A stretch of DNA of 62,495 bases from an uncultured Oscillospiraceae bacterium (GTDB lineage Bacteria; Bacillota; Clostridia; Oscillospirales; Acutalibacteraceae), in the NCBI GenBank assembly GCA_902474595.1, contig CABRWD010000001.1, positions 1 through 62,495 of the forward strand, written 5' to 3'. Below the pieces are notes generated by a model, which saw nothing but the letters and a program-made list of their open reading frames with translations, had not been told where the DNA came from and made no database searches. Shown here piece after piece: positions 36,890 to 53,697 of this stretch (positions are counted from its first letter, which is position 1; every line of letters begins with the position of its first letter). The position numbers were made by a program, and so were the translations under genes.

Positions 36890-38056
36890 ATGGCTATTAC
36901 CATGGCAAAGCTTTGCGAGGACGCAAGGGCGAAATACGATATGGAGCTTATAGCAGGCAAGGGCGGCGCGGAAAACACCGTAAGGTGGGTGCATATGGTT
37001 GAGGACAGAGAAGTTCCCGACTTTCTGCACGGCGGCGAGCTTATCTTTACAACGGGTATCGGTCACATCGAAAGCGATGACCGTATGCTTGAGTTTACCC
37101 GTAATCTCCACGCCCACGGCGCGGCGGGGGTTGTTTTCAACATAGGACCCTACATAAAAAGGATTCCTCCCGAGGTTATAAGCTACGCCGACCAAAACGA
37201 TTTTCCCGTCTTTACCCTACCTTGGAAGGTGCACATAATCGATATTACCTATGATTTCTGCGGCAGGATAATCGAAAACGAAAAGGCGGAAATGAGCCTT
37301 ATGCAGGCGTTCAAAAACCTGATATTCAGCCCCGAAAAGGAGGACGAATATCTCCCCGCCATACAGAAAAACGGCTTTGCCGCCGCCTCGCATTACAGGG
37401 TGTTTGCATTAACCTTCTTCTCGTCAAACGGCAAAAAGGCAACCGCTCCCGTAGTCGCAAAAAACAAAACCCTTTTGTGGCGTATATTCGCCCGTTCCGA
37501 CTCCCCCGTCGCTATGTTTGAGTACGCCTCAAGCCTTATTGTTATAAAGCAGAACAGTCCCCCTAAATGCGTTGAGCGTATTACCGCCGCTTTAGAACGG
37601 GCTTTCCAAAAAAGCAGTATCACCTATAAAATCGGAATTTCCGACGAGGGGGCGGGCTATCTTTCGGTACCTTATCTTTACCGTCAGGCAAACGCGGCGC
37701 TTGTAACGGCGAAATATCAGGACTTGGTCACAAAAAGCTACTGCGATATAGGGCTTAACCGCCTTATACTCGCCGTGGAGGACAAGGATTTATTAAGCCG
37801 TTACGCAAACGAAGTACTTAAGCCCGTTGCGGATTATGACGAGAAAAACGGCACAGACTGCCTTGAGCTTTTAAAGCTTTATGTTGAAAGCGATTCAAGC
37901 GTGATAGCCGTGGCGGAAATGAGCGGCGTTCACCGCAACACGGTAAATAACCGAATAAAGCTTGTCCGCGAGCTTTTAGGCTATGAGCTTACCGAGAAAA
38001 GAAAGGCGGAGCTGATATTAGCCTTTCAGATTAAGGATATTTTGAATTTTATTTAA
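36890..38056 (+). CDS. PucR-family transcriptional regulator
   Basis: The N-terminal purine-catabolism-regulator-like domain reads ELIAGKGGAENTVRWVHMVED..GGELIFTTG. The C-terminal HTH reads SVIAVAEMSGVHRNTVNNRIKLVRELLG. Confidence 0.85.
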   Translation: MAITMAKLCEDARAKYDMELIAGKGGAENTVRWVHMVEDREVPDFLHGGELIFTTGIGHIESDDRMLEFTRNLHAHGAAGVVFNIGPYIKRIPPEVISYADQNDFPVFTLPWKVHIIDITYDFCGRIIENEKAEMSLMQAFKNLIFSPEKEDEYLPAIQKNGFAAASHYRVFALTFFSSNGKKATAPVVAKNKTLLWRIFARSDSPVAMFEYASSLIVIKQNSPPKCVERITAALERAFQKSSITYKIGISDEGAGYLSVPYLYRQANAALVTAKYQDLVTKSYCDIGLNRLILAVEDKDLLSRYANEVLKPVADYDEKNGTDCLELLKLYVESDSSVIAVAEMSGVHRNTVNNRIKLVRELLGYELTEKRKAELILAFQIKDILNFI

Positions 38057-38070
38057 CGGAGGCATTTAAA

Positions 38071-39402
38071 ATGGATGCGAAAACAATAAAAGAATATCAC
38101 AAGAAGTACAATCTTCAGTCCTGGTCTAAGCAGGCAAATATCAATCCCCTGCCTATAAAGGACGCCGAGGGCATTTATCTTTACGACTTTGACGGCAACC
38201 GCTACACCGATATGTCAAGCCAGCTTGTAAACCTAAATGTCGGTCACAAAAACCGTCAGATAATTGACGCTATCAAGGAGCAGGCGGAAAAGTACTGCTA
38301 TTTAGCCCCGTCCTACGCGTCAGAACCCCGAAGCGAGCTTGCAAAAATGATTATCGAGCTTATGCCCGATAATATGGCTAAGGTATTTTTCACCAACGGC
38401 GGCGCGGACGCTAATGAAAACGCGGTTAAAATTGCCCGTATGTATACGGGCAGGCAAAAGGTTTTCTCCCGCTACAGGAGCTACCACGGCTCAACCTACG
38501 GCGCGGGAAATCTTACGGGCGAGCCGCGGCGTTATCCCCTTGAACCGGGCGCACCGGGCTTTGTAAAGTTCTTCGACCCCTATGTTTACAGGGAGAAAAT
38601 AAGATTTAATTCCGAAAAAGAGGCGGCGGACTATTATGTCGCCAAGCTCCGCGAGCAGGTGATTTACGAGGGACCCGAATCTGTAGCCGCTATTGTGGTT
38701 GAGACGATAACAGGCTCAAACGGCGTTATTATCCCGCCCGAGGGGTATTTAAAGGGAGTCCGCGCAATCTGCGATGAGTTCGGCATTATGATGATATGCG
38801 ACGAGGTAATGGCGGGCTGGGGCAGAACAGGCAAAATGTTCGCCTTTGAAAACTTTGGTGTAAAGCCCGACATCGTTTCCTTTGCAAAGGGAGTCACCTG
38901 CGGATATGTTCAGTTAGGCGGCGTTTGCGTATCAAAGGCGATTTCGGAGTATTTCGACGACCACCTGCTCTCCTGCGGGCTTACCTACAGCGGTCATCCC
39001 CTTGCCTGCGCCGCCGGCGTTGCCTGCCTTAACTTCTACAAGGATTCTAATATCCTTGAAAATGTTAATAAATCGGGCAAGGCTTTGGGCGAGGCGCTTG
39101 AAGAAATGAAGCTTAAACACCCGAGCGTGGGAGATGTTAGATACATAGGTCTTTTCTCGGCGGTGGAGCTTGTAAAGGACAAGGAAACAAGAGAGCCCCT
39201 TGTCCCCTACGGCAAGGACCCCGAGGGCATTATGGGCAGACTTATAGGCGAACTTAAAAAGCGCGGCTTTATGACCTACTCCCACGAAAATATGATTATA
39301 ATAGCTCCCCCGCTTATCATAACGGTCGAGCAAATTAAAGAGGAGCTTTCAAAGCTTGACGAGGTATTGTATATCGCAGATGAAATTATCGGCAAGAGGT
39401 GA
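38071..39402 (+). CDS. class-III (omega) aminotransferase, candidate beta-alanine aminotransferase
   Basis: 443 aa with FTNGGADANENAVK, DEVMAGWGRTG and SFAKG (PLP lysine) motifs. Confidence 0.85.
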   Translation: MDAKTIKEYHKKYNLQSWSKQANINPLPIKDAEGIYLYDFDGNRYTDMSSQLVNLNVGHKNRQIIDAIKEQAEKYCYLAPSYASEPRSELAKMIIELMPDNMAKVFFTNGGADANENAVKIARMYTGRQKVFSRYRSYHGSTYGAGNLTGEPRRYPLEPGAPGFVKFFDPYVYREKIRFNSEKEAADYYVAKLREQVIYEGPESVAAIVVETITGSNGVIIPPEGYLKGVRAICDEFGIMMICDEVMAGWGRTGKMFAFENFGVKPDIVSFAKGVTCGYVQLGGVCVSKAISEYFDDHLLSCGLTYSGHPLACAAGVACLNFYKDSNILENVNKSGKALGEALEEMKLKHPSVGDVRYIGLFSAVELVKDKETREPLVPYGKDPEGIMGRLIGELKKRGFMTYSHENMIIIAPPLIITVEQIKEELSKLDEVLYIADEIIGKR

Positions 39403-39407
39403 GGAGT

Positions 39408-39803
39408 ATGTCAGGCGAGCATTTTAAAAATATGAAAAACGCAAATTTGTTCGACTGCCTTAAGCTTGAGCAGACCCGCCTTGTGCCCACCTCTCTCCGC
39501 CACATTCACGCGGGCTATTCCGAAGTACCGCTTGAATTTCACCTTAAGCCCGAAACGGTAAAAAAGCTGTCCTTTAAGGTTCCGTGGGGCGGTACTCTGT
39601 ACGGTTTTGTCCACCCGAAGGCGGCAATTAAGGAGCGCTTAGGGCTTAAATCAGATATTACCTGCGTTACCGTTTCGGACTGGGACGGCAGATTTGTACT
39701 GATTTTTGAAACCGAAAACGAGGCGGACGCGGCGGCGTACAATGTCTCCGAAAATGATGTTATAAAGCTTTTGGAAAACTGCTGTAAACCTATAGATTTT
39801 TAG
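39408..39803 (+). CDS. hypothetical protein (131 aa), no recognisable motif
   Basis: Open frame tightly packed between the aminotransferase stop (39402) and the amidohydrolase start (39820), same strand. Confidence 0.55.
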   Translation: MSGEHFKNMKNANLFDCLKLEQTRLVPTSLRHIHAGYSEVPLEFHLKPETVKKLSFKVPWGGTLYGFVHPKAAIKERLGLKSDITCVTVSDWDGRFVLIFETENEADAAAYNVSENDVIKLLENCCKPIDF

Positions 39804-39819
39804 AAAGGAAGAATGTCTT

Positions 39820-41082
39820 ATGTATAAATGCAGCGAAGAAAGAATGAAGGATAAAATTGAGACCTTTTCAAAATTCGGCGACGCGGGTCACGGCGGAATA
39901 ACAAGATATTCCCTGTCGGACGCGGCGGTTATGGCGCGCAAGGAGTTTGTCCGCCGTATGACGGCGATAGGCGCTAAGATTGAGACCGACGACCTTGCTA
40001 ATATGTACGCGACCTTAGAGGGTACCGACCCCTCGGCAAAGCGTATTGTAATGGCTTCCCATGTCGATTCGGTTAAAAACGGCGGAAACTATGACGGAAT
40101 ACTCGGCGTAATGTCGGCAATGGAGGTCTTAGAGACCGTTGCCGAGCAGAAAATCGAGCATAAGCACCCGCTTACCGCTATGATTTGGACAAACGAGGAG
40201 GGTTCGCTCTATCCGCCCGCTATGATGTGTTCGGGTATCGTCTGCTACGATTATCTTCCCGAGGACATCCGCCAGAAGTTTAAATACGAGGATATGATGG
40301 CTTCAAAGAGCATTCTCGATCCCACAAAAACCTTTGGCGACGCGCTTAATAAATCGGAATTCAAGGGTGATAAGGCAAACCGCATTTCCCCTGAAAAGTA
40401 TCAGTATATGTTTGAAACCCATATTGAGCAGGGTCCGATTCTCGAAGATAACGGCAAGGACATAGGCGTTGTGGACTGCGTCCTCGGTATGTTTAACTAC
40501 CGTGTAAGATTTTACGGTCAGACCGTTCACGCGGGTACATTCCCGATGCCGAAACGCCGCGACGCGCTTTACGCCGCCGCCGAAGCGCTCTGCTACCTGC
40601 ACACCGAAATCGATAAGCTGAATATTCCCGAGCTTGTTTACACCACGGGTGAAATCGTCTGCCACCCCTGCGTACACACCTGCGTTCCCGATTATGTGGA
40701 CTTTTCAATCGATGTACGCCACAAGGACGCCGACGCCCTCGAAAAGGTGCTCGCTGTAGTTAAAAGCTGCGGCGACAAAGAGTGGGCAGGCTGTAAATGC
40801 GAGGTAGAAAAGGCGTGGAACCGCGACACCGTTTACTGGAACGAAAAGCTTGTAGGCTACGTTGAGGAATCGGCTACAGAGTGCGGCATACCCCATATGC
40901 CCATACATTCGGGCGCAGGACACGATGCCCAGTTCGCCGCCTATATGCTGCCTACCACTATGGTTTTCGTGCAGTCCAAGGACGGACTTTCCCACTGCGA
41001 GCCTGAGTTCTCCTCTGTAAAGCATTGCACCGAGGGTGCAACCGTAATGCTTAACGCCGTGATTAAGGCGGATAAGGATTAA
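39820..41082 (+). CDS. M20-family amidohydrolase (beta-ureidopropionase / N-carbamoyl-amino-acid hydrolase / allantoate amidohydrolase type)
   Basis: GGITRYSLSD, ASHVDSVKNGGNYDGILGV, WTNEEGS and HSGAGHDAQ motifs, 420 aa. Confidence 0.85.
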   Translation: MYKCSEERMKDKIETFSKFGDAGHGGITRYSLSDAAVMARKEFVRRMTAIGAKIETDDLANMYATLEGTDPSAKRIVMASHVDSVKNGGNYDGILGVMSAMEVLETVAEQKIEHKHPLTAMIWTNEEGSLYPPAMMCSGIVCYDYLPEDIRQKFKYEDMMASKSILDPTKTFGDALNKSEFKGDKANRISPEKYQYMFETHIEQGPILEDNGKDIGVVDCVLGMFNYRVRFYGQTVHAGTFPMPKRRDALYAAAEALCYLHTEIDKLNIPELVYTTGEIVCHPCVHTCVPDYVDFSIDVRHKDADALEKVLAVVKSCGDKEWAGCKCEVEKAWNRDTVYWNEKLVGYVEESATECGIPHMPIHSGAGHDAQFAAYMLPTTMVFVQSKDGLSHCEPEFSSVKHCTEGATVMLNAVIKADKD

Positions 41083-41093
41083 GCCTGCAAATT

Positions 41094-41263
41094 GGGGCTG
41101 TAAAAAAACAAATCGGGGTTTGTAGGACTAATTAAAAATAGGCCCCCTTGCCTAAAGGGGGCTGTCGAGCGTAGCGAGACTGGGGGATACATAGGTTTGC
41201 AGAAGCCCAAATGTATCCCTCCACCGCCGTTCGGCGGTCCCCCTCCCTTTAGGCAAGGGAGGC
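41094..41263. repeat. composite palindromic repeat, family A copy 1
   Basis: ggggctgtaaaaaaaca, aaatcggggtttgtagg, then a long hairpin: cccccttgcctaaagggggctgtcgagcgtagcgagactggggga ... tccctcc..ccctccctttaggcaagggagg. Confidence 0.85.
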
Positions 41264-41322
41264 GTTTTTGTGCAAAATGTCTTTAAAGCAACAACCCCGT
41301 AACAATGAAAAGAGGTACATTT

Positions 41323-42477
41323 ATGTCACGGGAATTTTTTATACCTAAAAAAATACTGTCGGGTGACGGCGCCCTCGGCTCACTTCCGGAGCTTATAACA
41401 GACTGCGGCAAAAAGGCGCTTATTGTAACGGGCAAAAATGTAAGACAGCTTCCCTGTTTTACCGCTCTTTGCGATATGCTGACCAAAAGCTCCGTTGATT
41501 TTGCCGTATTTGACGGCATTACCGGCGAGCCTGACGATATTATGATAGATTCGGGAGCAGAAGCTTACAGCAAAGAAAACTGCGATTTCCTTATAGCGAT
41601 TGGCGGCGGAAGTCCTATTGACTCAATGAAAGCAATCGCGGTGAATGTCTCGGGTGAAAAGAATATCTGCGACTATTACGGACAGATTATAAATTTAAAG
41701 CTCCCCAAGATGATTGCAATTCCCACCACCGCGGGTACAGGCTCGGAGGCTACACAGTTCACCGTTATAACCGATACAAAGCGGGATATTAAAATGCTTT
41801 TAAAGGGGGCGGCTTTAGTTCCCGACATTGCGGTTGTGGACGGCTCTCTCGGTATATCCGCGCCTAAAACGGTCACCGCCAACACCGGTCTTGACGCGCT
41901 TACCCACGCGGTCGAGGCGTATACCTCCCGCCGCGCACAGCCCCTTACCGACAGCGTTTGCATTTCGGCGGTAAAGCGACTGTTTAAATATCTGCCTAAA
42001 GCATATGAGAACGGAAACGATTTGACCGCGCGGAACGAAACGGCGATTGCGGCGCTTGAGGCCGGGATTGCGATTAACAATTCCTCGGTTACAATAGTTC
42101 ACGGCATGAGCCGACCTATAGGCGCGCTCTACCACGTCCCCCACGGTCTTTCAAACGCTATGCTTTTATATAAGTGTATGTCCTTTGCAAAGGACGGCGC
42201 GGTTTCCCGCTTTGCAGAGCTTGCAAGGGCGGTAGGTAAAGCCCTGCCCGACACCGACGACAGCACCGCCGCCGACCTCTTTTTAGACGCTTTGGGTGAG
42301 CTTTGCAAGACCCTCCAAGTCCCAACACTTAAAGAGTACGGCATAAAAAGGCAAGATTTCTTTAATAATATCGATAAAATGGCAACCGACGCCCTTGCGA
42401 GCGGGAGTCCCGCCAACACCGTAAAAGAGGTAACAAAAGCGGATATAGTAAATATTTATCGTTCGCTGTTTGACTGA
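41323..42477 (+). CDS. iron-containing (group III) alcohol dehydrogenase, candidate malonic-semialdehyde reductase
   Basis: GGGSPIDSMKAIA, PTTAGTGSE and the HxxxH region (LTHAVEAY...VHGMSRP). I prefer the ATG at 41323 after aagagg; the track start is 41305. Confidence 0.85.
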   Translation: MSREFFIPKKILSGDGALGSLPELITDCGKKALIVTGKNVRQLPCFTALCDMLTKSSVDFAVFDGITGEPDDIMIDSGAEAYSKENCDFLIAIGGGSPIDSMKAIAVNVSGEKNICDYYGQIINLKLPKMIAIPTTAGTGSEATQFTVITDTKRDIKMLLKGAALVPDIAVVDGSLGISAPKTVTANTGLDALTHAVEAYTSRRAQPLTDSVCISAVKRLFKYLPKAYENGNDLTARNETAIAALEAGIAINNSSVTIVHGMSRPIGALYHVPHGLSNAMLLYKCMSFAKDGAVSRFAELARAVGKALPDTDDSTAADLFLDALGELCKTLQVPTLKEYGIKRQDFFNNIDKMATDALASGSPANTVKEVTKADIVNIYRSLFD

Positions 42478-42605: not shown

Positions 42606-42634
42606 TTGACAGCCAAGTTATACGGTGCTATTAT
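42606..42634 (+). promoter_or_regulatory. consensus-like sigma-A promoter with no downstream ORF
   Basis: TTGACA, 17 nt spacer, TATTAT, with a TGc extended -10 element. Confidence 0.35.
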
Positions 42635-42650
42635 ATATGCATAGAAGCAA

Positions 42651-42685
42651 AGGCGTTTCGGCTTTAGACCGAAGCGCCTTTTTTG
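42651..42685 (+). terminator. Rho-independent terminator
   Basis: aggcgtttcgg / ccgaagcgcct stem followed by tttttt. Confidence 0.7.
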
Positions 42686-42757
42686 TATTTTATGGTTCCT
42701 TTGCACAATTTGGGGCGTTTTTGACACTTAAGCCTTACGGGTGATTGACTAACCAAA

Positions 42758-42959
42758 GGCCCCCTTGTGTAAAGGGTGCGGGTGTCCGGTGGACACCGCC
42801 CAGAAGCAACAGCACCGACCGAGGTGGCAGCCGAGACGCTGTCAGCGTAGCTGACTGGGGGATTGTTTTGGAAACTTTAATTATATTGTTGATTTTTGTA
42901 TTAACAACAATCCCTCCGTCTCGACAAAGTCGAGCCACCTCCCTTTACACAAGGGAGGC
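42758..42959. repeat. composite palindromic repeat, family A variant carrying a family B insert
   Basis: ggcccccttgtgtaaaggg, then [tgcgggtgtccggtggacaccgcccagaagcaacagcaccgaccgaggtggcagccgagac], then gctgtcagcgtagctgactggggga ... tccctcc..cctccctttacacaagggaggc. Confidence 0.85.
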
Positions 42960-43015
42960 AAAATATCATATAACCCCAATATTAGAATTAGAATCTATTT
43001 TATAACGAAGGAAGG

Positions 43016-44341
43016 ATGAACAGAATGAATACACCTGTCGCTAATTCACGCGAGATAAACAAGCTTCTCGCAAGATACGGGGTAAAATTCGGAATTTACA
43101 AAAACGGAGTGTTCAACGAACAGCTTTTCCCGTTTGACGCGATTCCGAGGGTTATTACCTCGGCGGATTTTTCCAAAATGGAAAAGGGCCTCATACAAAG
43201 AGTGGACGCTCTAAATATGTTTTTGCGGGACATTTACTCCGACAGAAAAATTGTAAACGACGGCATTATTCCCGAGGATTTTGTTTATTCTTCAAAGGGC
43301 TACCTTGCCGCTTGCGCCGACCTTATTCCACCGAAGGGAATTTACAGTCATATTTCGGGGATAGATTTGGTTCAGGCAAAGGACGGGGAATGGTACATAC
43401 TTGAGGATAATTTAAGAATACCGTCGGGTGCCAGCTATCCCCTTATCGCAAGGGAAATTTGCCGAATGGCAAGCCCCGTTACATTTGAAAACAACCGAAT
43501 TGTTGACAACCGTAACTATGCCTCCCTCTTAAGTGAGACTATGAACCATGTCAACTGCGGCGGAATAAATGTCATACTTACCCCGGGAAGATATAACGCC
43601 GCGTATTTTGAGCACAGCTACCTTGCGGAAAAGACGGGCGCCGTACTTGCCCAGAACACCGACCTCTTTGTAGAGGACAATATACTGTATCTGATGGATT
43701 ATAACGGATGGAGAACAAAGGTAGGCGCAGTTTACCGCCGTATTTCGGACGAATATTTAGACCCCCTTACCTTCCTGCCCGAATCCCTTATAGGCGTGCC
43801 GCATATTATGGACGCTTTCCGCGCGGGAAATACCGCTATAATCAACGCTCCGGGCAACGGCGTGGCGGACGACAAGGGTATTTATTACTTCGTTCCTAAA
43901 ATGATAAAATATTACCTCGGGGAGGAGCCGATACTTAAAAACGCCCCGACCTATCTTCCCTTTTACGAAGAGGACAGAAAATATGTGCTCGACAATCTCG
44001 AAAAGCTTGTTGTTAAAGACGTTTCCGAGGCGGGCGGTTACGGCGTTGTCTTCGGCAGGGATATGACTAAGACCGAGCTTGAGGACTGGCGAAGGCTGAT
44101 AACCGAACAGTCGCGCCGGTTTATAGCGCAGGAGGTTATCGACTTTATCGATTTAGAGGTTACCGAAAACGACAAGACGGTTATGCGCAAGGCGGATTTA
44201 AGGGCCTTTGTGCTTTCGGGCGAAAAGACCCGCGTTTGGGCGAGCGGTCTTACCCGTTTTTCACGAAACGCGGATTCATTTGTTGTTAATTCATCTCAAG
44301 GAGGAGGCTTTAAAGACACATGGGTGCTATTACCAGAATAA
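43016..44341 (+). CDS. circularly permuted type-2 ATP-grasp protein
   Basis: LFPFDAIPRVITSADFSKMEKGLIQRVDALNMFLRDIYSDRKIVNDGIIP matches the CP_ATPgrasp_2 (DUF404/DUF407) pattern. The start may be the second ATG at 43025. Confidence 0.85.
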   Translation: MNRMNTPVANSREINKLLARYGVKFGIYKNGVFNEQLFPFDAIPRVITSADFSKMEKGLIQRVDALNMFLRDIYSDRKIVNDGIIPEDFVYSSKGYLAACADLIPPKGIYSHISGIDLVQAKDGEWYILEDNLRIPSGASYPLIAREICRMASPVTFENNRIVDNRNYASLLSETMNHVNCGGINVILTPGRYNAAYFEHSYLAEKTGAVLAQNTDLFVEDNILYLMDYNGWRTKVGAVYRRISDEYLDPLTFLPESLIGVPHIMDAFRAGNTAIINAPGNGVADDKGIYYFVPKMIKYYLGEEPILKNAPTYLPFYEEDRKYVLDNLEKLVVKDVSEAGGYGVVFGRDMTKTELEDWRRLITEQSRRFIAQEVIDFIDLEVTENDKTVMRKADLRAFVLSGEKTRVWASGLTRFSRNADSFVVNSSQGGGFKDTWVLLPE

Positions 44342-45015
44342 ACATTAACAATCTTTTTTGGCTCGGCAGATATGTTGAGCGGGTATTTATCACGCTTGAC
44401 AGCTTTTTCAAATATGCCGACAGGTTTATAGAGGGCGGGGAATCGGCATATATAAAATATCTAAACGATATAAGCGTGCCGAATATTTATGAAAATTCCC
44501 GGGATTTTTTTGAGCGCTATGTTTTCGACCTTTCCAATCCCGATTCCATTATAGCTAATTTGGACCGCGCGCTCGGTAACGGAATAGTTCTGCGGGAGGA
44601 GATAAAAACCCCGTCCCTTTCCTATCTGCAAATGGCTATGGATAAATTCAAAAAGTGCGAGGGAACAAACAAAATCAGGTACGATATGCTTCCCGTCCGG
44701 GACGCGCTGTACGCCTTTTGGGGCAGCGCTGACAGCAATATGACAAATGAAGCCGCCCGCAGAATAATCCATCTCGGAAAAGCTGTGGAGCGAATAGATA
44801 TGTATTTGCGGTTGGGTTTCCCCTCGGAAAGTATTTCATCGGAGCTTAACAATCTGCTTAAGCATATTTCAAGATATGCCGGTGACAGTACCTTTATTAA
44901 CAATGAAGCCTTTGAAGAATTAAAGGCATATGCTATAAACAGTACAAGCTTTGAAAAGAACCGAGACGGCGTTCTTGCAAGCGTAGAAAGTCTTATTGAG
45001 GTGAACGATTTTTGA
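44320..45015 (+). CDS. alpha-E domain protein
   Basis: N-terminal NNLFWLGRYVERVFITLD signature. It overlaps the ATP-grasp gene by 22 nt. At 231 aa it is shorter than I expect for this family. Confidence 0.8.
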   Translation: MGAITRININNLFWLGRYVERVFITLDSFFKYADRFIEGGESAYIKYLNDISVPNIYENSRDFFERYVFDLSNPDSIIANLDRALGNGIVLREEIKTPSLSYLQMAMDKFKKCEGTNKIRYDMLPVRDALYAFWGSADSNMTNEAARRIIHLGKAVERIDMYLRLGFPSESISSELNNLLKHISRYAGDSTFINNEAFEELKAYAINSTSFEKNRDGVLASVESLIEVNDF

Positions 45016-45788
45016 GAAGTCTCAGGTTTGAATATGAAACAAGGCTTGATTTTTCCTGCTGTGTAACCGAGCACAGCTTTTCGCTGAGATGTATGCCCTT
45101 TTCGGACGGAAGACAGACAGTAGCCGAGCCGATATGCGAAATATCGCCCGAGCCCGAGAGCGTTTGGTACAGCCGCGACAGCTTCGGGAACACGGTCATC
45201 TGCGGAAAAAACAGTCAGCCGCATTTAAGCTTTTCCTTTAGGGTGTACGGAGAAGCGAGAATAGCAAACTCCAACAAGGTTTTAGGCTCCGCACAGCCCT
45301 TTTACAGATTTTATTCCCCGCTTACACAGCCGGGCGTGGCATTGACGGAATTTTATGCAGAACACAAGCCGACAGGCTCCGGCATTCTCGCAAGAGCCGA
45401 GGAGCTTTGCAACAGCGTTTATGAGAGTATGACCTACAAAAAGGGTTGTACAGGCGTTGATACCACGGCTGAAGCGGCAATGAAAATGAAAGCGGGCGTA
45501 TGTCAGGATTACGCCCATATTCTGCTGTCACTTCTCAGAACAGACGGCATTTGCTGCCGATATGTGGCGGGGCTTGCCTTTGAATCGGGCGAGACCCACG
45601 CTTGGGTTGAGGTAAACGACGGCGGCGGCTGGATAGGAATCGACCCTACCCATAACAGATTTATAAGCGACAGCTCTATAAAGCTTTGTCACGGCCGCGA
45701 TTATTCCGACTGCCCTATTGAGCGGGGTATCTATCTTGGAAACGCCGTCAGCCTTCAAACCGTGTATTCGAGGGTTTCGGAAATCTGA
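45012..45788 (+). CDS. transglutaminase-like cysteine protease-fold protein with Bact_transglu_N-type N-terminus
   Basis: GVCQDYAHILLSLLR (Cys), THAWVEV (His) and IDPTH (Asp) form the triad. A TTGA start/stop overlap links it to the alpha-E gene. Confidence 0.85.
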   Translation: MRSLRFEYETRLDFSCCVTEHSFSLRCMPFSDGRQTVAEPICEISPEPESVWYSRDSFGNTVICGKNSQPHLSFSFRVYGEARIANSNKVLGSAQPFYRFYSPLTQPGVALTEFYAEHKPTGSGILARAEELCNSVYESMTYKKGCTGVDTTAEAAMKMKAGVCQDYAHILLSLLRTDGICCRYVAGLAFESGETHAWVEVNDGGGWIGIDPTHNRFISDSSIKLCHGRDYSDCPIERGIYLGNAVSLQTVYSRVSEI

Positions 45789-45803
45789 AAGGGGAAAATC
45801 CAA

Positions 45804-46748
45804 ATGACTACAGTTATTGCGAGCGCGGGTCTTGCCGTAAATGAGCGCATAGAAATACGCCGCAACAGAATACAGAATCTCGACCACAAAAGTCCTTCAA
45901 ACAAACGGGTGTGCATAGTTTCGGGAACCCACGGCGACGAGCTGGAGGGTCAGTATGTCTGCGCTAAGGCGGCGCAGATACTAAGAGACAATATATCCAG
46001 CTTAAACGGAACCGTGGATATATATCCCGCGCTTAATCCATTGGGAATCGACAGCATAAACAGGGGCATCCCGCTTTTCGACCTTGATATGAACAGGATT
46101 TTTCCTGGTACTGCCGACGGAACGATGGCGGAATGTATTGCCGCCGATATAATAGACGATATAAGCGGGGCGGATATATGTATAGACATACATTCGAGTA
46201 ATATTTATCTAAAAGAAATTCCTCAAATCAGAATAAACGAAATAAGCGCGGAGGAGCTTGTACCCTACGCAAAGCTTTTAAACTGCGACTTTATATGGGT
46301 TCATTCCTCCGCAACGGTGCTTGAAAGCACCTTAGCCTACAGCCTTAATACGACAGGCACAAAGACTCTCGTGGTTGAAATGGGGGTCGGAATGAGGATT
46401 ACAAGCGAATACTGCAAACAGCTTACGGCGGGTATTTTTAATCTTTTAAAGGAGCTCGGAATGTGGCAGGGCGAAACCGAGCCGGTCAAAAGCCCCATCA
46501 TTTCAAGCGACCATGAGGTTGCCTTTGTAAACAGCGGTGCAGACGGCATTTTTGTCCCCTCGGTCGGGCATTGGGTGGATATTAAAAAGGGCGAGCATAT
46601 CGGCGATGTAATAGACCCTGTGACCGGCAAAACAGAGGAATATGTAACCGCTCCCTGCGGCGGTAAAATATTTACATTAAGGGAATTTCCCATAGTCTAC
46701 GGCGGCTCGCTTATCGCGCGTATTTTGGGAGGAAAAACAGATGCGTAA
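45804..46748 (+). CDS. succinylglutamate desuccinylase/aspartoacylase (AstE-AspA, M14-like) family protein, metal site intact
   Basis: VCIVSGTHGDELEG (HxxE) and CIDIHSS (third ligand). Confidence 0.8.
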   Translation: MTTVIASAGLAVNERIEIRRNRIQNLDHKSPSNKRVCIVSGTHGDELEGQYVCAKAAQILRDNISSLNGTVDIYPALNPLGIDSINRGIPLFDLDMNRIFPGTADGTMAECIAADIIDDISGADICIDIHSSNIYLKEIPQIRINEISAEELVPYAKLLNCDFIWVHSSATVLESTLAYSLNTTGTKTLVVEMGVGMRITSEYCKQLTAGIFNLLKELGMWQGETEPVKSPIISSDHEVAFVNSGADGIFVPSVGHWVDIKKGEHIGDVIDPVTGKTEEYVTAPCGGKIFTLREFPIVYGGSLIARILGGKTDA

Positions 46749-47667
46749 ACAGATTCTTTATTCCATACAGTCGCCCTACCGCGCTCCTATGGATATAATC
46801 GGCTTTAAATTCGGCGGCGGCGAAAAGGCGATGTGCGTTGTCGGAGCGATGAGGGGCAACGAGGTACAGCAGATGTATGTCTGCTCACAGCTTGTAAAAC
46901 GGCTTAAGGCTCTCGAAAAAAGCGGCGCTATATTAGACGGAAAGGAAATAATGATAATCCCCTGCGTCAACTATTATTCAATGAATATCGGCAAGCGGTT
47001 CTGGACAATGGATAACACCGATATAAACCGTATGTTCCCGGGCTACAACCTCGGCGAAACCACCCAAAGGATAGCCGACGGTCTTTTTGAGGAAATCAAG
47101 GGCTATACCTACGGCGTACAAATGGCAAGCTTTTATCAGCAGGGGGATTTTCTTTCCCATGTCAAAATAATGGAAACGGGCTTTACGGAGCATGGGGTTC
47201 TTTCTGATTTCGGTCTGCCCTACGCTTTTGTACGCACTCCCCGCCCGTATGATACCACAACCCTTAACTACAACTGGCAGGTTTGGGAAACAAAAGCCTT
47301 TTCGCTTTACACCAACGCGACCGATACGATAGACGAGGACTCCGCGAAAACAGCGGTTGACGCGATACTCAGATTTATGAAAAAGCGCGGCATAATAAAG
47401 GCGGAGGTTTTCAGCGGCTATAATACCGAAATAATAAGCGAGGACAGGCTTCTTCAGGTTCATTCTACCGCGGCGGGCATTTATAAAAGCTATGTTAAGA
47501 CGGGCGACGAGGTAAGAAAGGGCGATCTGCTGTGTGAAATAATAGACCCGCTTGAGGGAGTTGTTATCTCAAAGGTTTTGGCACCCGCCGACGGAATTGT
47601 ATTTTTCAGATATAACCGTCCCCTTGAATTTGAAAAAACCGTACTTTACAAAATAATCAGAATATGA
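46741..47667 (+). CDS. AstE-AspA family paralogue with a degenerate metal site
   Basis: MCVVGAMRGNEVQQ has Arg where the paralogue has His, and no DxH-type third ligand is visible (VQMASF). It overlaps the preceding gene by 8 nt. Confidence 0.75.
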   Translation: MRKQILYSIQSPYRAPMDIIGFKFGGGEKAMCVVGAMRGNEVQQMYVCSQLVKRLKALEKSGAILDGKEIMIIPCVNYYSMNIGKRFWTMDNTDINRMFPGYNLGETTQRIADGLFEEIKGYTYGVQMASFYQQGDFLSHVKIMETGFTEHGVLSDFGLPYAFVRTPRPYDTTTLNYNWQVWETKAFSLYTNATDTIDEDSAKTAVDAILRFMKKRGIIKAEVFSGYNTEIISEDRLLQVHSTAAGIYKSYVKTGDEVRKGDLLCEIIDPLEGVVISKVLAPADGIVFFRYNRPLEFEKTVLYKIIRI

Positions 47668-47678: not shown

Positions 47679-47707
47679 TTGACACAGCCCCAAAACGGTG
47701 CTAATAT
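47679..47707 (+). promoter_or_regulatory. sigma-A promoter of the trp leader
   Basis: TTGACA, 17 nt spacer, TAATAT, with a TGc extended -10 element. Confidence 0.5.
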
Positions 47708-47714: not shown

Positions 47715-48005
47715 AGTTTAATAGTTTAAACCGTTGAAGCGGAGATAAAGTCGGTTATGCTTCCACAGAGAGTCCGAGGTGCTGTGATTCGGGCGAAAAA
47801 CAGACCGTCAAATGGACCGCTGAGGGTGCGGTCAAATGCGTTTTCGCAGAGTATTCCGCAACGTTAAGGCATACGTTAGTTGTCGGGGATATGCTTGTAT
47901 CCTGCTAAGGCGCGTAGCTTTTTGCTATGAAAACAAGGTGGCACCGCGGATAATCGTTTTATTCGTCCTTGACAGAGGGTAGCTTTCTGTCGGGGGCGTT
48001 TTTTG
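47715..48005 (+). promoter_or_regulatory. T-box riboswitch leader, tryptophan specifier (UGG)
   Basis: AGAGA box cagagagtccgaggtgctgtga, specifier context aaaUGGa at 47813..47815, T-box sequence aacaaggtggcaccgcgg at 47932..47949, and terminator cgtccttgacaga...tctgtcgggggcg plus T-run at 47964..48005. Confidence 0.85.
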
Positions 48006-48055
48006 TTTTGCTCCCCGATGGAAACGGAAACCAAATTTTCAGGAGGTTAAGCAAA

Positions 48056-49522
48056 ATGAAATTTATGCCTGATTTAGAAGAGGTTAAAAGAATCGCGGCG
48101 GAGGGAGAATATAAGGTTCTGCCGGTCAGCTGTGAAATTCTGTCTGACATCTGCACGCCGATCGAGGCGGTGGGAATACTCAAAAACGTATCCGACCATT
48201 GCTATATGCTGGAATCGGTCGCCGAGAGCGAGCGTTGGGGACGGTACACCTTTTTAGGCTTTGAGCCGAAGCTTGAAATTACCTGTCTTGACGGCGAGGT
48301 AAAGGCGGGCGGCGAAAGCTTTTATACCGATAATCCCTCCGATTTTCTGCGGGAAATTTTAAAGGAATGGAAAAGCCCGAGATTTTCCTATCTTCCGTCA
48401 TTTACAGGGGGGCTTGTGGGCTACTTTTCCTACGATTACCTCTGCTACAGCGAGCCTACCGCAAAGGTAAAAACGCAGGACAGCGAAAATTTCAAGGATA
48501 TGGATTTAATGCTATTCGACAAGGTTATCGCCTTTGATAATGTTAAGCAGAAAATCGTGCTTATAGTAAATATGCCCCTTGGCAATCCCGAAAAAGAGTA
48601 CGAAAAGGCGGTAGAGGAGCTTAAAAGACTTGCCTATTTGCTTAGGAACGGGGACAGAAAAAAGGAGGCGGGCGGACGGCTTTTAGGCGAGGTCACACCG
48701 CTTTTTAACAGGGAGCAGTACTGCCGAATGGTCGAAAAGGCAAAGCACCATATAAAGGAGGGTGACATTTTCCAAATAGTCCTTTCCAACCGTTTAAGCG
48801 CGCCCTTTGAGGGAAGTCTTTTAAACACCTACCGAATTCTCCGTACCATAAACCCCTCGCCCTATATGTTCTATTTTTCGGGCACGGATGTCGAGGTTGC
48901 GGGCGCGTCCCCCGAAACCCTTGTAAAGCTTGAGGACGGGGTTTTACACACCTTTCCCCTTGCGGGAACAAGACCGCGGGGAGAAACCGAGGAAGAGGAC
49001 AAAGCGCTCGAAAAGGGACTGCTTGCCGACAAAAAGGAGCTTGCGGAGCATAATATGCTTGTTGACCTTGGAAGAAACGACCTTGGGAAAATAAGCAAAT
49101 TCGGGACGGTAAAGGTCGAAAAGCTCCACAGCATAGAGCGGTATTCCCATGTTATGCACATAGGCTCGACCGTAAGGGGCGAAATCCGCGACGGCTGTGA
49201 CGGGCTTGACGCGGTGGAGGCGGTACTGCCCGCGGGTACCCTTTCGGGCGCGCCGAAATTAAGGGCGTGCCAGCTAATAGGCGAGCTTGAAAACAACAAG
49301 CGCGGAATTTACGGCGGCGCTATCGGATATATTGATTTTACGGGGAACACCGACACCTGTATTGCAATACGCATTGCCTACAAGAAAAACGGCAAGGTAT
49401 TTGTTAGGAGCGGTGCGGGTATTGTTGCCGACTCCGACCCTAATAAGGAATTTGAGGAATGTATAAACAAGGCGAAGGCGGTAGTAAACGCCTTAAGACT
49501 TGCGGGGGAGGAAGATTTATGA
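48056..49522 (+). CDS. trpE: anthranilate synthase component I
   Basis: I prefer the start MKFMPDLEEV after an aggagg RBS; the track start at 47969 lies inside the T-box terminator. The chorismate-binding domain carries GAIGYI and similar motifs. Confidence 0.95.
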   Translation: MKFMPDLEEVKRIAAEGEYKVLPVSCEILSDICTPIEAVGILKNVSDHCYMLESVAESERWGRYTFLGFEPKLEITCLDGEVKAGGESFYTDNPSDFLREILKEWKSPRFSYLPSFTGGLVGYFSYDYLCYSEPTAKVKTQDSENFKDMDLMLFDKVIAFDNVKQKIVLIVNMPLGNPEKEYEKAVEELKRLAYLLRNGDRKKEAGGRLLGEVTPLFNREQYCRMVEKAKHHIKEGDIFQIVLSNRLSAPFEGSLLNTYRILRTINPSPYMFYFSGTDVEVAGASPETLVKLEDGVLHTFPLAGTRPRGETEEEDKALEKGLLADKKELAEHNMLVDLGRNDLGKISKFGTVKVEKLHSIERYSHVMHIGSTVRGEIRDGCDGLDAVEAVLPAGTLSGAPKLRACQLIGELENNKRGIYGGAIGYIDFTGNTDTCIAIRIAYKKNGKVFVRSGAGIVADSDPNKEFEECINKAKAVVNALRLAGEEDL

Positions 49523-50094
49523 TACTGCTTATTGATAATTACGACAGCTTTTCATATAACCTTTATCAGCTGATAGGCGAAATCGAGCCTAATATTAAGG
49601 TTATCCGCAATGATGAAATGACGGTAGAGGAAATAAGTAAGCTCTCCCCCGACCGCATAATTTTGTCCCCCGGTCCCGGCAGACCCGAGGACGCGGGGGT
49701 AATAATAGACTGCGTAAAGGAATTGGGCGGAAGGATACCGATTTTGGGAGTGTGTCTCGGTCATCAGGCTATCTGCGCGGCGTACGGAGCGGAAATCACC
49801 TACGCAAAGGAGCTTATGCACGGTAAGCAGTCTGAAGCCACCCTCGATTTAACCTGTCCCTTGTTTAAGGGCTGTAACGAAAAAACCGAGGTTGCGCGCT
49901 ATCACTCCCTTGCGGCAAATAAGGACACCCTGCCCGACTGTTTAAGAGTGACCGCCGAAACGGCGGACGGCGAGGTAATGGCGGTTATGCATACAGAATA
50001 TCCCGTCTTCGGCGTTCAGTTCCACCCGGAATCGATAATGACGCCGAGCGGCAAAATAATGCTTGAAAATTATATTAAGGAGTGTTCTTTATGA
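49519..50094 (+). CDS. trpG: anthranilate synthase component II (glutamine amidotransferase)
   Basis: [17 protein letters not shown] and GVCLGHQ catalytic Cys. An ATGA overlap links it to trpE. Confidence 0.9.
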
Positions 50095-51119
50095 TTAAGG
50101 AAGCTATTGTAAAGATTGTAAATAAGGGTGATTTAAGCTATGACGAGGCGTACGCCGTAATGAACGAAATTATGAGCGGCGAGACCTCCCCCACCCAGAA
50201 CGCCGCGTTTTTGGCGGCGCTTTCAACAAAAAGCGCGAAAGCCGAAACCATCGATGAGATAGCGGGCTGTGCCGCCGCAATGCGGGAGCACGCGTTAAAG
50301 CTTGATACCGATATGGAGCTTTTCGAGATAGTCGGCACGGGCGGAGACAACGCCCACAGCTTTAATATTTCCACCACCTCCGCCCTTGTCGCGGCGGCAG
50401 GCGGAATGAAGGTCGCAAAGCACGGCAACCGCGCCGCCTCCTCAAAATGCGGCACTGCCGACTGCCTTGAAGCTCTGGGGGTAAACATTGAGCAAAGCCC
50501 CGAAAAGTGCAAGGAGCTTTTGGAAAAGGTAGGAATGTGCTTTTTCTTCGCGCAGAAATACCACACCTCTATGAAATATGTGGGAGCTATAAGGAAAGAG
50601 CTCGGCTTCCGCACCGTTTTCAATATCTTAGGACCGCTTACCAACCCCGGAAGTCCTAAATATCAGCTTTTAGGCGTGTACGATGAGTATTTGGTCGAGC
50701 CGCTCACCAAGGTGCTTATGAGCCTCGGCGTTAAGCGGGGTATGACGGTTTACGGCAAGGATAAGCTGGACGAAATATCTTTAAGCGCACCCACAACCGT
50801 ATGCGAGTTTAAGGACGGCTGGTACAAGACCTATACAATAGCTCCTGAGGATTTCGGTTTAAAGCGTTGTGAAAAAAGCGAGCTTGTGGGCGGCAGTCCG
50901 GAGGAGAACGCCGAGATTACACGGGCGATACTAAGCGGCGAAAAGGGAGCTAAGCGTGACGCGGTGCTTATGAATGCCGGTGCGGCGCTTTACATAGGCG
51001 GCAAGGCGGAGACTATGGCGGAGGGCGTTGCCCTCGCCGGTCAGCTTATTGATTCGGGCGCGGCGCTAAAGGTGCTTGAGGGGCTTATTGAAATCAGTAA
51101 TTCGGGTGAAAAGCAATGA
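50091..51119 (+). CDS. trpD: anthranilate phosphoribosyltransferase
   Basis: [17 protein letters not shown] and [15 protein letters not shown] motifs. An ATGA overlap links it to trpG. Confidence 0.95.
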
Positions 51120-51898
51120 CGGTGCTCGACAGGCTCGCCGACTACGCAAGACAGCGCACAGAGGCGGAAAAAAGGGAATTACCCTTTAATGAATTAAGGC
51201 GTCAGGCGGAACAGCTCCCCAAGAAGGGCTTTGAGTTTGAAAAAGCGCTTAAAAAGGAAGAAATATCTTTCATTTGCGAGTGCAAAAAAGCCTCCCCCTC
51301 AAAGGGGATAATCGCCCCCGATTTTCCTTACTTAGAGATTGCGAGGGACTACGAAAGGGCGGGCGCGGACTGCATTTCGGTGCTTACCGAGCCTAAGTGG
51401 TTTTTAGGGAGCGATGAATATTTAAGCGAAATTTCCGCGAATGTCTCTATCCCCTGTCTTCGCAAGGACTTTACGGTGGACGAATATATGATTTATAAGG
51501 CGCGGCTTTTAGGAGCGTCGGCGGTACTGCTTATCTGCTCAATACTTGACGAAGCGAGAATAAAGGAGTATATTAATATTTGCGATTCGCTTGGGCTTTC
51601 CGCCCTTGTGGAGGCGCACGACGAAAACGAGGTTGTTTCAGCCCAGCGCGCGGGGGCGAGAATAATAGGAGTAAACAACCGTAATTTAAAGGATTTTTCG
51701 GTCGATACCGAAAACAGCGCGCGGCTAAAAAGTCTTGTATCAAATGATGTGCTTTTTGTTTCGGAAAGCGGGGTCAAAACCCGAGCTGATGTAGAAAAGC
51801 TGATAGAGATAGGCGCGGACGCGGTGCTTGTAGGCGAAACCCTTATGCGGGCAAGCGACAAAACCGCCGCGCTTAAAGAATTAAAGGGCTTACTATGA
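51116..51898 (+). CDS. trpC: indole-3-glycerol-phosphate synthase
   Basis: [17 protein letters not shown] and GVNNRNL motifs. Confidence 0.95.
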
Positions 51899-52503
51899 CA
51901 AAGATAAAATTTTGCGGACTTAGAAGGCAAGAGGATATTGATTTTGCTAACCTTATCCTGCCCGAGTACATAGGCTTTGTTTTCGCAAAGAAAAGCAAAC
52001 GGTATGTATCTCCCGAAAAAGCCGCGCTATTAAAGAAAAGGCTTGACGGCAGAATTAATGCTGTCGGGGTCTTTGTAAACGAGGAGCCCCTACAGGTCGC
52101 AGAGCTTTTAAATGGCGGGGTTATCGATATAGCCCAGCTCCACGGCGGCGAAAATGAGGAATATATAAGCGAACTGCGAAAGCTTACCGATAAGCCGATT
52201 ATTAAGGCTTTTAATGTAACAGACGAAAGCGATATTTCTTTAGCGTTAAATAGCTCGGCGGATTTTGTCCTGCTCGATTCTCCCTTGGCGGGAAGCGGAA
52301 CGCGGTTTGACTGGGAGCTGTTAAAAAATTTCGGCAGACCATATTTTTTAGCGGGCGGGCTTAATCCCGACAATGTTTTCGGCGCGGTGCTAAGTCTTCA
52401 CCCTTACGCGGCAGATGTAAGCTCGGGTATAGAAACAGACGGGGTTAAGGATTTTGATAAAATGAAGCGCTTTGCGGCGGTAAGAGAACTGAAAGGAACA
52501 TAA
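51895..52503 (+). CDS. trpF: phosphoribosylanthranilate isomerase
   Basis: MTKIKFCGL...IGFVF...QLHG pattern. An ATGA overlap links it to trpC. Confidence 0.9.
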   Translation: MTKIKFCGLRRQEDIDFANLILPEYIGFVFAKKSKRYVSPEKAALLKKRLDGRINAVGVFVNEEPLQVAELLNGGVIDIAQLHGGENEEYISELRKLTDKPIIKAFNVTDESDISLALNSSADFVLLDSPLAGSGTRFDWELLKNFGRPYFLAGGLNPDNVFGAVLSLHPYAADVSSGIETDGVKDFDKMKRFAAVRELKGT

Positions 52504-52506
52504 AAA

Positions 52507-53697
52507 ATGGCAGATAAAAAGGGACGCTTCGGAATACACGGCGGTCAGTATATTCCCGAAACGCTGATGAACGCGGTTATAGAGCTTGAAGAAGCCTACA
52601 ATCACTTTAAGGACGACCCGCAGTTTAATAAGGAATTAACCGACCTTTTTAACGATTATGCGGGAAGACCCTCAAGGCTTTATTTTGCCCAAAAAATGAC
52701 CGAGGATTTAGGCGGGGCTAAAATTTACCTTAAACGCGAGGATTTAAACCACACGGGCGCGCACAAGATAAACAATGTTTTGGGTCAGGCTCTGCTTGCT
52801 AAAAAAATGGGCAAGACCCGCTTAATCGCCGAAACGGGAGCGGGTCAGCACGGTGTTGCGACCGCCACCGCCGCCGCCCTTATGGGAATGGAGTGCGTGG
52901 TCTTTATGGGGGAGGAGGACACCGTCCGTCAAGCACTTAATGTTTACCGTATGCGGCTTTTAGGCGCGGAGGTTATCCCCGTAAAGAGCGGCACAGCAAC
53001 CCTTAAGGACGCGGTTTCCGAGGCGATGCGGGAATGGACGCGGCGTATTGCAGACACCCACTACTGCTTAGGCTCGGTTATGGGTCCCCACCCGTTTCCG
53101 ACGATAGTGCGCGATTTTCAGGCGGTAATTTCAAAGGAGATAAAAGAACAGCTCCTTGAAAAGGAAGGCAAGCTCCCCGACGCGGTTTTAGCCTGTGTCG
53201 GCGGCGGCTCTAACGCTATCGGAAGCTTTTATCACTTTATAGGCGATCCCTCGGTGCGGCTTATCGGCTGTGAGGCGGCGGGCAGAGGAATCGACACCTT
53301 CGAGACCGCCGCAACCGTAAACACGGGCAGAGTAGGCATTTTCCACGGTATGAAGTCCTATTTCTGTCAGGACGAGTACGGTCAGATAGCACCCGTTTAC
53401 TCAATTTCGGCGGGGCTTGATTATCCGGGCGTAGGCCCCGAGCACGCCTATCTTCACGATACAGGCAGGGCGGAGTATGTTCCCGTCACCGATGACGAGG
53501 CGGTAAACGCCTTTGAATACCTTTCAAAAACCGAGGGAATTATCCCCGCAATAGAATCCTCCCACGCGGTCGCCCATGCTATAAAGCTTGCGCCGACTAT
53601 GGATAAGGACAAGATTATTGTAATTACTATTTCGGGCAGAGGGGACAAGGACTGCGCCGCGATAGCGAGATACAGGGGTGAAAATATCTATGAGTAA
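52507..53697 (+). CDS. trpB: tryptophan synthase beta chain
   Basis: [16 protein letters not shown] (PLP lysine) and GGGSNAIG. Confidence 0.95.

Follow-up and report, generated by a model that had tools for sequence, protein, structure and literature searches.

A widely conserved ATP-grasp, Alpha-E, transglutaminase-like and AstE/AspA gene cassette from an uncultured Oscillospiraceae bacterium and its putative link to nitrogen control

The DNA examined here, 62,495 nt of contig CABRWD010000001.1 from an uncultured Oscillospiraceae bacterium (assembly GCA_902474595.1; the whole stretch is referred to as the window), was found to possess five consecutive genes on the plus strand at 43016-47667, encoding a circularly permuted ATP-grasp protein, an Alpha-E domain protein, a transglutaminase-like protein and two proteins of the AstE/AspA family, termed E1 and E2. 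We think it rather likely that the five constitute one operon and one evolutionary unit, namely a nitrogen-controlled cassette that builds and breaks an amide, in which the known triad of ATP-grasp, Alpha-E and transglutaminase-like genes occurs in a variant with E1/E2 in the slot of Anbu. The cassette is thus a variant of an uncharacterised triad, and what is new about it is its breadth, its ancient pair of an active and an inactive deacylase, and its membership of a nitrogen regulon by way of a leader RNA that has no Rfam family.

The five open reading frames (ORFs) lie at 43016-44341, 44320-45015, 45012-45788, 45804-46748 and 46741-47667 in the ORF list, and their coordinates and overlaps are exactly those given in the original prediction, which had been made from the letters alone. 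Reading of the sequence at the junctions showed that the ATP-grasp and Alpha-E genes overlap by 22 nt and that the transglutaminase-like gene begins with a TTG forming part of a TTGA start/stop overlap. A gap of 15 nt, with a ribosome-binding site rich in purines (GAAAGGGGAAAA), lies 5' of E1, and E2 overlaps E1 by 8 nt and has a GGGAGG site (GGGAGGAAAA) before it, so that the operon-like packing proposed earlier holds. A promoter and terminator scan of the window detected no convincing or strong promoter or terminator inside the cassette. The overlapping junctions, the lack of strong internal signals and the gene order conserved in other genomes (see below) suggest that the five genes are transcribed together as a single operon.

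Pfam supports the family assignments that had been made for all five proteins. The ATP-grasp protein (43025..44341, plus strand), a predicted carboxylate-amine ligase, matches CP_ATPgrasp_2 (E = 2e-134) and aligns over its full length with PDB 3n6x, a structural-genomics entry labelled "putative glutathionylspermidine synthase" (E = 3e-112). Its start is more likely the ATG at 43025 (MNTPVA..., 438 aa) than the longest-ORF start at 43016, since the former is conserved in relatives and is the start called in loci L086 and L001 (L001-L085 being the related loci described below, L086 and L087 two strains which are 99% identical to the window in Alpha-E and share its synteny, and L093-L212 loci from a metagenome pattern scan). 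An exact-protein look-up returned no record for the window protein, and a paper on a Klebsiella ATP-grasp protein was set aside as it concerns a different family. The Alpha-E protein (44320..45015, plus strand, 231 aa) is of the short form, with its Pfam match (Alpha-E, E = 4e-17) covering profile positions 7-164 of 294. Alignment of relatives showed the motif WLGRYxER to be conserved and GRYxER to be invariant. An AlphaFold2 model of this protein is all-helical (predicted local distance difference test score of 84), and neither a Foldseek comparison of the model with the PDB (best E = 0.24, template modelling score 0.4) nor a sequence search of the PDB gave a match. The transglutaminase-like protein (45012..45788, plus strand), of papain-like fold, matches Bact_transglu_N (1e-9) and Transglut_core (2e-17) and has an intact Cys-His-Asp triad, with GVCQDY, ETHAW and GIDP being kept in relatives and aligning to PDB 3isr. 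The PDB entries for the triad families come from structural genomics only (3n6x for ATP-grasp and 3isr for the transglutaminase-like protein), with none for Alpha-E. No NCBIfam equivalog was found for any of the five cassette proteins and none of the five was matched by the PADLOC anti-phage defence models.

Going by the names of the organisms behind its close homologues, the window belongs to Oscillospiraceae/Acutalibacteraceae. Conservation was assessed in a set consisting of one genome per species, which was scanned with an alignment of E2 and gave at least 582 confirmed matches. The counts that follow are for the best 80 of these, all of which belong to Oscillospiraceae or Ruminococcus, including the cultured R. 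flavefaciens strains FD-1 and 007c, and gene order at the 80 loci was read with local hidden Markov models (HMMs). The same five-gene order, collinear and on one strand, was present in 66 of the 80 species genomes; a further 11 loci are interrupted by contig ends and are consistent as far as visible. The remaining three are anomalous (L012, L021 and L035), with frameshifts or ORF merging probably accounting for L012 and L035, while L021 may be a rearrangement or a misassembly. This arrangement of five genes was also seen around three homologues of E1 (80, 75, and 64% identity), the flanks there being unrelated.

The cassette extends well beyond this family. An exhaustive search of E2 against all 50%-identity representatives gave 1084 clusters at E <= 1e-3 and 110 at E <= 1e-30, with the clade lacking the catalytic residues extending to ~26–35% identity with E2. 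The same gene order was found in Hallerella porci (Fibrobacterota), a Porphyromonadaceae metagenome-assembled genome (MAG; Bacteroidota), Persephonella (Aquificota) and a Nitrospirota-like contig/MAG. All four of these distant contigs, which were the four looked up, carry ATP-grasp, Alpha-E, transglutaminase-like, E1 and E2 genes, always with different flanks, and in all four E1 is intact and E2 is without the same residues as in the window. The E1 and E2 genes overlap or abut in most loci of the cassette, Alpha-E is mostly 210–238 aa in length (313 aa in Persephonella), and no Anbu gene was present in any cassette locus examined, related or distant. Judging by this distribution, the cassette is an old unit occurring in at least five bacterial phyla, and it was most likely spread by horizontal transfer. 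The linkage of AstE/AspA genes to the triad in other genomes, on which the original prediction had been made to depend, is therefore strong; the notion that the triad had become fused with these genes locally in this genome has to be replaced by that of a conserved cassette.

E1 (45804..46748, plus strand) is predicted to be the catalytic copy of the pair, an AstE/AspA-family zinc deacylase (Pfam AstE_AspA_cat, E = 3e-24). Alignment shows that it keeps the H-E-H zinc ligands and the catalytic Glu (HGDE, IDIHSS, and VVEMG), and it also retains the Asn-Arg carboxylate-binding motif. These features and the fold are shared with AstE, aspartoacylase and DoeB, but E1 differs from those enzymes in coming with an obligatory pseudoenzyme paralogue. 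The solved structures nearest to E1 are 2qj8, 3cdx, and DoeB 6twm, with 3na6 also being among the solved relatives of E1 and E2. The paralogue, E2 (46741..47667, plus strand; AstE_AspA_cat, E = 3e-11), is without two zinc ligands and the catalytic Glu, as in an alignment with DoeB the first His is replaced by Arg (RGNE), the second His by Ala and the catalytic Glu by Asn. Both proteins fall far below every NCBIfam equivalog cut-off (succinylglutamate desuccinylase, aspartoacylase, and DoeB), with E1 scoring 61.9 bits against DoeB (cut-off 402.7) and 21.3 bits against aspartoacylase (cut-off 180), and E2 39.8 and 18.2 bits, respectively.

Orthologues of E1 are 43–54% identical to the window E1, with active-site residues invariant across five phyla. 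Those of E2 are full length and 34–52% identical to the window E2 across phyla; they have always lost the same residues and keep the NR...FPG...GETTQRIA motifs. E1 and E2, in contrast, are only ~22% identical to each other, and these values indicate that the duplication and the inactivation of E2 are old and that E2 is under selection. As E1 is always intact and E2 always degenerate, E2 can be regarded from its sequence as a conserved pseudoenzyme, which remains within the fold family but for which catalysis is not expected, rather than as a decaying gene. The residue states in the original description of an intact/degenerate pair were confirmed; its "degenerate" copy, however, is this pseudoenzyme, carrying the same losses across phyla. 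It is probable that E2 serves as a non-catalytic partner of E1 and that the two form a heteromer.

A σ70-type promoter belonging to the cassette was predicted at 42606..42634 (plus strand), with TTGACA, a spacing of 17 nt, TATTAT and a TG before the -10 (extended -10), scoring 11/12. It is followed directly by a leader RNA hairpin at 42635..42689 (plus strand), which has a short A-rich 5' end, AGCAA, a GC-rich stem of 11–13 bp (42649-42681) and a U-tract. A covariance model of this leader (R1) gives it 53.3 bits and found it as the sole copy in the window, and its predicted folding energy is -25.2 kcal/mol (z = -4.8). The promoter and hairpin occur upstream of the ATP-grasp gene in ~60 related loci, usually 24–60 nt before the start codon and with the hairpin between promoter and ribosome-binding site. 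A TTGACA-type -35 and a TATAAT-type -10 stand directly 5' of the hairpin in most related loci. As a separate observation, a TTGTCA-N5-TGACAA palindrome lies over the -35 of several hairpin-led operons in the Ruminococcus clade (promoters of L004, L062, L065, L067, L072, and L073; e.g., L004 ~5030-5050) and resembles a GlnR/TnrA-type site with one spacer base fewer. This TGTCA...TGACA palindrome is found over the -35 in some clades only, so is not general, and is absent from the promoter in the window.

In an alignment of 49 distinct leader copies, AA and two G residues are invariant in the region of AGCAA-N-GGCGC, and compensatory changes are seen at 9 of the 11 pairs of the 11-bp stem. Cells of the alignment were paired in 97% of cases compared with 76% in shuffles and 42–60% with slid partners, a percentage inflated because a hairpin-finding script, with its bias towards pairing, was used to select the copies; this has to be counted against our interpretation. 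The covariation pattern, the covariance-model matches and the independent scan described below do not depend on that script's choice, and double-change cells numbered 119 compared with 40 in shuffles. The leader is likely, on these sequence features, to be a terminator-like candidate attenuator. It resembles the leader-terminator attenuators of Firmicutes (T-box, PyrR, ANTAR targets, and the pyrG leader) in having a GC-rich hairpin and U-tract between promoter and start codon and in being common to a functionally coherent set of operons (see below), but it differs from them in having only ~8–25 nt 5' of the stem, no dual-hexaloop and no Rfam match.

Other explanations of the leader were considered and rejected. 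A DNA operator does not account for it, as the spacing of the stem, its inner sequence and the loop length vary while complementarity is kept, which argues for an RNA structure. An ANTAR target was discounted since there is no dual-hexaloop/double-hairpin pattern and the loops are not conserved, and a T-box or riboswitch since the 5' segment (~8–25 nt before the stem) is too short. A comparison with Rfam gave nothing at the gathering threshold, the sole match at E <= 1 being chance-level and on the other strand. No description of nitrogen control by a leader RNA in Ruminococcus was found in the literature searched.

The leader is not confined to the cassette. Application of R1 to 1.1 Mb of related loci resulted in 98 matches, of which ~70 represent the cassette leader. 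The ~28 others, most of them between a σ70-type promoter and a ribosome-binding site, precede genes for citrate synthase (with isocitrate dehydrogenase), glutamine-dependent NAD synthetase (NadE), Peptidase_C26/GATase, glutamine synthetase type III (GS-III), an Amt-PII fusion, a RelA_SpoT small alarmone synthetase, a GNAT protein and a FUSC_2-HAD membrane protein. As these loci had been chosen around the cassette, an unbiased scan of metagenome contigs was run with the exact pattern AAGCAANGGCGCTT-N6-26-GCGCCNTT, giving 121 matches, 82 of which have a stem of 8 bp or more. The ORFs next downstream include GS-III (18 matches in 5 clusters), Amt-PII (5 matches in 3 clusters) and the glutamine-using enzymes glutamate synthase (GltB), asparagine synthase (AsnB), PurF and CTP synthase (PyrG). 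They further include genes of nitrogen acquisition or scavenging (urease γ, UreA; a NifB-like radical-SAM protein; LamB/YcsF; and an M20 amidohydrolase), along with EutH, amino-acid ABC transport proteins, a class-III aminotransferase, RelA_SpoT and FUSC-HAD. One match precedes a circularly permuted ATP-grasp gene, while two annotated matches (HNH and SASA), along with several ORFs that are short or unannotated, have the appearance of chance matches or miscalls. The sequences carrying the leader come from Oscillospiraceae/Ruminococcus and from gut and rumen metagenomes.

The occurrence of the same hairpin before nitrogen genes, both in the related loci and in the independent metagenome scan, indicates that the cassette is co-regulated with core nitrogen assimilation as a member of a nitrogen regulon. 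From the content of this regulon it is most likely that the cassette is switched on under nitrogen limitation. This shared leader is the strongest functional clue, and was missed in the original prediction. The assignment agrees with the finding that the triad lies within the NtrC/σ54 nitrogen-limitation regulon of Burkholderia (PMC5491218). Upregulation of Anbu in nitrogen-limited Pseudomonas putida has also been reported, as cited in PMC5666114, and in marine metagenomes the triad domains co-vary with urea-metabolism domains (PMC3597751). More tentatively, the hairpin may represent the cis-acting part of a hitherto undescribed system of nitrogen-responsive attenuation in gut and rumen Clostridia, one that would control GS-III, Amt-PII, GOGAT, urease and nif-like genes, with the cassette making and breaking an amide that signals nitrogen status or stores nitrogen; if true, this would be the first physiological role for the ATP-grasp/Alpha-E/transglutaminase triad.

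Three genes recur beside the cassette in the ~65 loci compared, namely FUSC-HAD (30 loci), Peptidase_C26 (15 loci) and RelA_SpoT (12 loci). They are absent from the window and are not in the cassette of distant phyla, and are for this reason regarded as regulon mates and not as parts of the cassette. The FUSC-HAD gene, a FUSC_2/ArAE domain fused to a Cof-type HAD phosphatase (L002 9963-11138, L004 1045-2313, L071 2796-4076, and others), was observed upstream or downstream of the cassette, on the same strand and with a leader hairpin of its own.

The triad is present in many bacterial phyla and has been discussed since 2008–2009 with regard to proteasome origins, owing to Anbu. The triad which the original prediction traced to a 2009 survey matches the uncharacterised one of the Anbu operon, whose order is ATP-grasp, Alpha-E, transglutaminase-like protein and Anbu (PMC5666114; PMC6376114). 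A role of the triad in peptide synthesis or tagging is ascribed by these two papers to Iyer et al. (2009) and was still unproven as of 2017–2018, although the ATP-grasp protein of the Yersinia Anbu operon releases phosphate from ATP (PMC6376114). The cassette has the first three families in the same order, with a hydrolase gene next, and the link to nitrogen limitation is common to both (PMC5491218). It contains the circularly permuted ATP-grasp protein, an adjacent Alpha-E protein with the ER motif and an adjacent transglutaminase-like protein with Cys-His-Asp, and so belongs with the triad. It is not, however, an Anbu operon in the strict sense, as genes 4 and 5 are AstE_AspA_cat and the fourth slot holds an active/inactive AstE/AspA pair instead of Anbu, a proteasome-β-like Ntn hydrolase. 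It further differs in that its Alpha-E is mostly of the short form and in being regulated through a leader RNA hairpin and not by NtrC/σ54. In the literature searched no paper was found that links the five families, or that brings together ATP-grasp, transglutaminase and succinylglutamate desuccinylase; Iyer et al. (2009) was outside the scope of that search and may contain an earlier mention of an AstE-type variant.

With these observations, a mechanism can be proposed for the nitrogen-controlled build-and-break cassette. Transcription would begin at the σ70-type promoter, which is the cassette's own, and pass a terminator-like leader hairpin that is switched with nitrogen status. A cytoplasmic ATP-grasp enzyme, aided by Alpha-E, would then couple, at the expense of ATP, an amine or amino acid with a carboxylate. 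The Cys-His-Asp enzyme would hydrolyse or transfer amide bonds of the resulting compound, while the E1/E2 deacylase would act on amide bonds of the same compound, most likely liberating an amino acid, for instance Glu or Asp, from a peptide C-terminus or an N-acyl amino acid. Ligase and hydrolases would together make up a build-and-break cycle tied to the nitrogen economy. The characterised members of the AstE/AspA family (AstE, aspartoacylase, and DoeB) deacylate small N-acyl amino acids. On account of this and the Asn-Arg carboxylate-binding motif of E1, our preferred substrate, by analogy, is either a small N-acyl amino acid or a short peptide whose C-terminal carboxylate is free, from which Glu or Asp would be released. 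A comparable logic, though no closer resemblance, is seen in GspSA, where an amide ligase of the ATP-grasp type occurs together with a papain-like thiol amidase able to undo the bond. The cassette proteins differ from GspSA in being unfused, the ATP-grasp protein in being circularly permuted and the thiol enzyme in being of the transglutaminase type and not CHAP; the cassette also adds Alpha-E and the E1/E2 pair. That a zinc deacylase takes the place of Anbu is an argument for regarding the fourth component as the pathway's amide hydrolase and not as a protease chamber.

It is well established that enzymes of the ATP-grasp, transglutaminase-like and M14-like superfamilies write and erase amino-acid additions in the tubulin code (TTL/TTLL, vasohibin and CCP, respectively). 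A writer/eraser reading of the five genes, whether by tubulin-code or by N-acetylaspartylglutamate (NAAG) logic, fits the domain set, although the families within the superfamilies differ and the cassette is bacterial, cytoplasmic and nitrogen-regulated. This parallel makes it conceivable, though on balance we doubt it, that the cassette tags proteins or peptides, with the ATP-grasp enzyme adding amino acids to a target C-terminus or side chain and the transglutaminase-like peptidase and M14-like deacylase trimming or removing them. In such a system the pseudoenzyme E2 and the helical Alpha-E could serve as substrate adaptors, and the proposal of Iyer et al. (2009), as relayed in PMC5666114 and PMC6376114, is one of peptide synthesis or tagging. 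However, no target or small tag gene is conserved in or beside the cassette across the phyla examined, the nearest relatives of E1 (2qj8, 3cdx, and DoeB) are small-molecule deacylases or uncharacterised, and the Anbu-operon proteins were without interaction or peptidase activity (PMC6376114).

Nitrogen scavenging by the cassette appears a little less probable. Here the two hydrolases would release amino acids or ammonia from an amide (N-acyl or γ-glutamyl) that is either imported or internal, and the ATP-grasp enzyme would activate or re-capture an intermediate, as in the γ-glutamylation of the Puu pathway. Such a role would suit the place of the cassette in a nitrogen regulon, the Peptidase_C26/GATase gene with the same leader near it in 15 loci, and the putative pyrimidine-degradation cluster which it adjoins in the window; in E. 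coli, AstE itself catalyses the last step of a scavenging pathway under NtrC control. It is less easily reconciled with the lack of a conserved transporter, oxidoreductase or other modifying enzyme within the cassette and with neighbouring genes that vary between lineages, and plain hydrolysis does not obviously require an ATP-spending ligase.

That the genes form a cluster for an exported, peptide-like secondary metabolite, with the hydrolases acting in maturation or self-protection, is very improbable. The FUSC_2/ArAE-HAD membrane protein with the same leader which adjoins the cassette in 30 of ~65 loci could be taken as a hint of it, as could the location of some cassette copies near mobile-element genes. 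That neighbour is nevertheless absent from the window and from the four distant phyla, no precursor peptide, nonribosomal peptide synthetase or dedicated exporter was found inside the cassette, PADLOC gives no match, and co-regulation with GS, Amt and GOGAT suggests primary nitrogen metabolism. Finally, a mere adjacency of the AstE/AspA genes to the triad, with the second copy a decaying pseudogene, has only the weaker Pfam score of that copy to recommend it and is excluded as a matter of chance by the collinearity of the five genes in five phyla with unrelated flanks, by a full-length E2 with many invariant motifs that is as similar across phyla as given above, and by the conserved E1/E2 overlap.

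Several points nevertheless weigh against the nitrogen-controlled build-and-break cassette, in addition to the selection of leader copies already described. We are aware of no member of the triad for which a substrate, product or phenotype has been described. The direction of regulation is deduced from regulon content, and the evidence for the E1/E2 heteromer consists of gene coupling and co-conservation. The hairpin could stabilise the mRNA instead of attenuating transcription, and no antiterminator structure or trans-acting factor was found for the leader, and in the window a ~306-nt insertion in the 5' untranslated region (UTR) might alter expression. Lastly, the Anbu-operon proteins showed neither stable complexes nor detected peptidase activity (PMC6376114).

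The results bring to light a second, equally conserved version of the triad, in which a heteromeric-looking zinc deacylase replaces Anbu. Control by a leader hairpin that is unrelated to NtrC, together with NtrC control elsewhere, means that two independent regulatory systems point to one physiology for the triad. The question of the triad's product is now approachable, with R. flavefaciens FD-1 and 007c and Hallerella porci as cultured hosts and nitrogen limitation as the condition. The hairpin is, furthermore, a candidate for a new nitrogen-control element in abundant gut and rumen bacteria.

The 5' UTR insertion resembles a miniature inverted-repeat transposable element (MITE) and occupies ~42692..43001 (edges ±5 nt; no strand assigned), in the stretch that separates the leader hairpin from the ribosome-binding site. 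Within it lies an inverted repeat of 15 nt (42762-42776 / 42941-42955); the insertion is flanked by ATTTTAT direct repeats and is absent from the 99%-identical strains L086 and L087. The original prediction described the region upstream of the cassette as a repeat-filled spacer; the region really consists of a promoter, a conserved leader hairpin and a mobile insertion. Partial copies of the insertion lie at 58892-58962 (94% identity) and 58628-58675. Near these, at 58540-58610 on the minus strand, the leader model matches weakly (22.4 bits, E = 0.1), at what is probably a terminator.

Downstream, no terminator was detected between the last cassette gene and the trp leader. A trp promoter (TTGACA/TAATAT) was identified by promoter scan at 47679-47707, 5' of trpE. 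The downstream boundary consists of this promoter and a T-box leader before trpE at 47725-47973 (88.8 bits, just below the Rfam cut-off of 93 bits), the latter ending in a terminator at 47964-47998, and the trp operon follows as trpE, G, D, C, F, B, and A at 47969-54463.

Upstream of the cassette, a run of genes at 33739-42477 encodes Amidohydro_1, a DHO_dh and ferredoxin-domain protein, a PucR-family regulator, a class-III aminotransferase, an M20 amidohydrolase and an Fe-alcohol dehydrogenase. The same run is found in L086 (1-8456), and the leader hairpin has no copy within 33739-42477. It looks like a cluster for reductive degradation of pyrimidines (or a related N-heterocycle), which would be another nitrogen-scavenging function. 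The first part of the window (1-27800, minus strand) is a surface-polysaccharide cluster with genes for a dTDP/GDP-sugar dehydratase, DegT aminotransferases, several glycosyltransferases, a flippase and an ordinary ATP-grasp protein (5852-7141). Its G+C content is low, at 0.31–0.41 compared with ~0.48 for the rest of the window, and a gene for a large serine recombinase (28011-29741) lies at the G+C shift.

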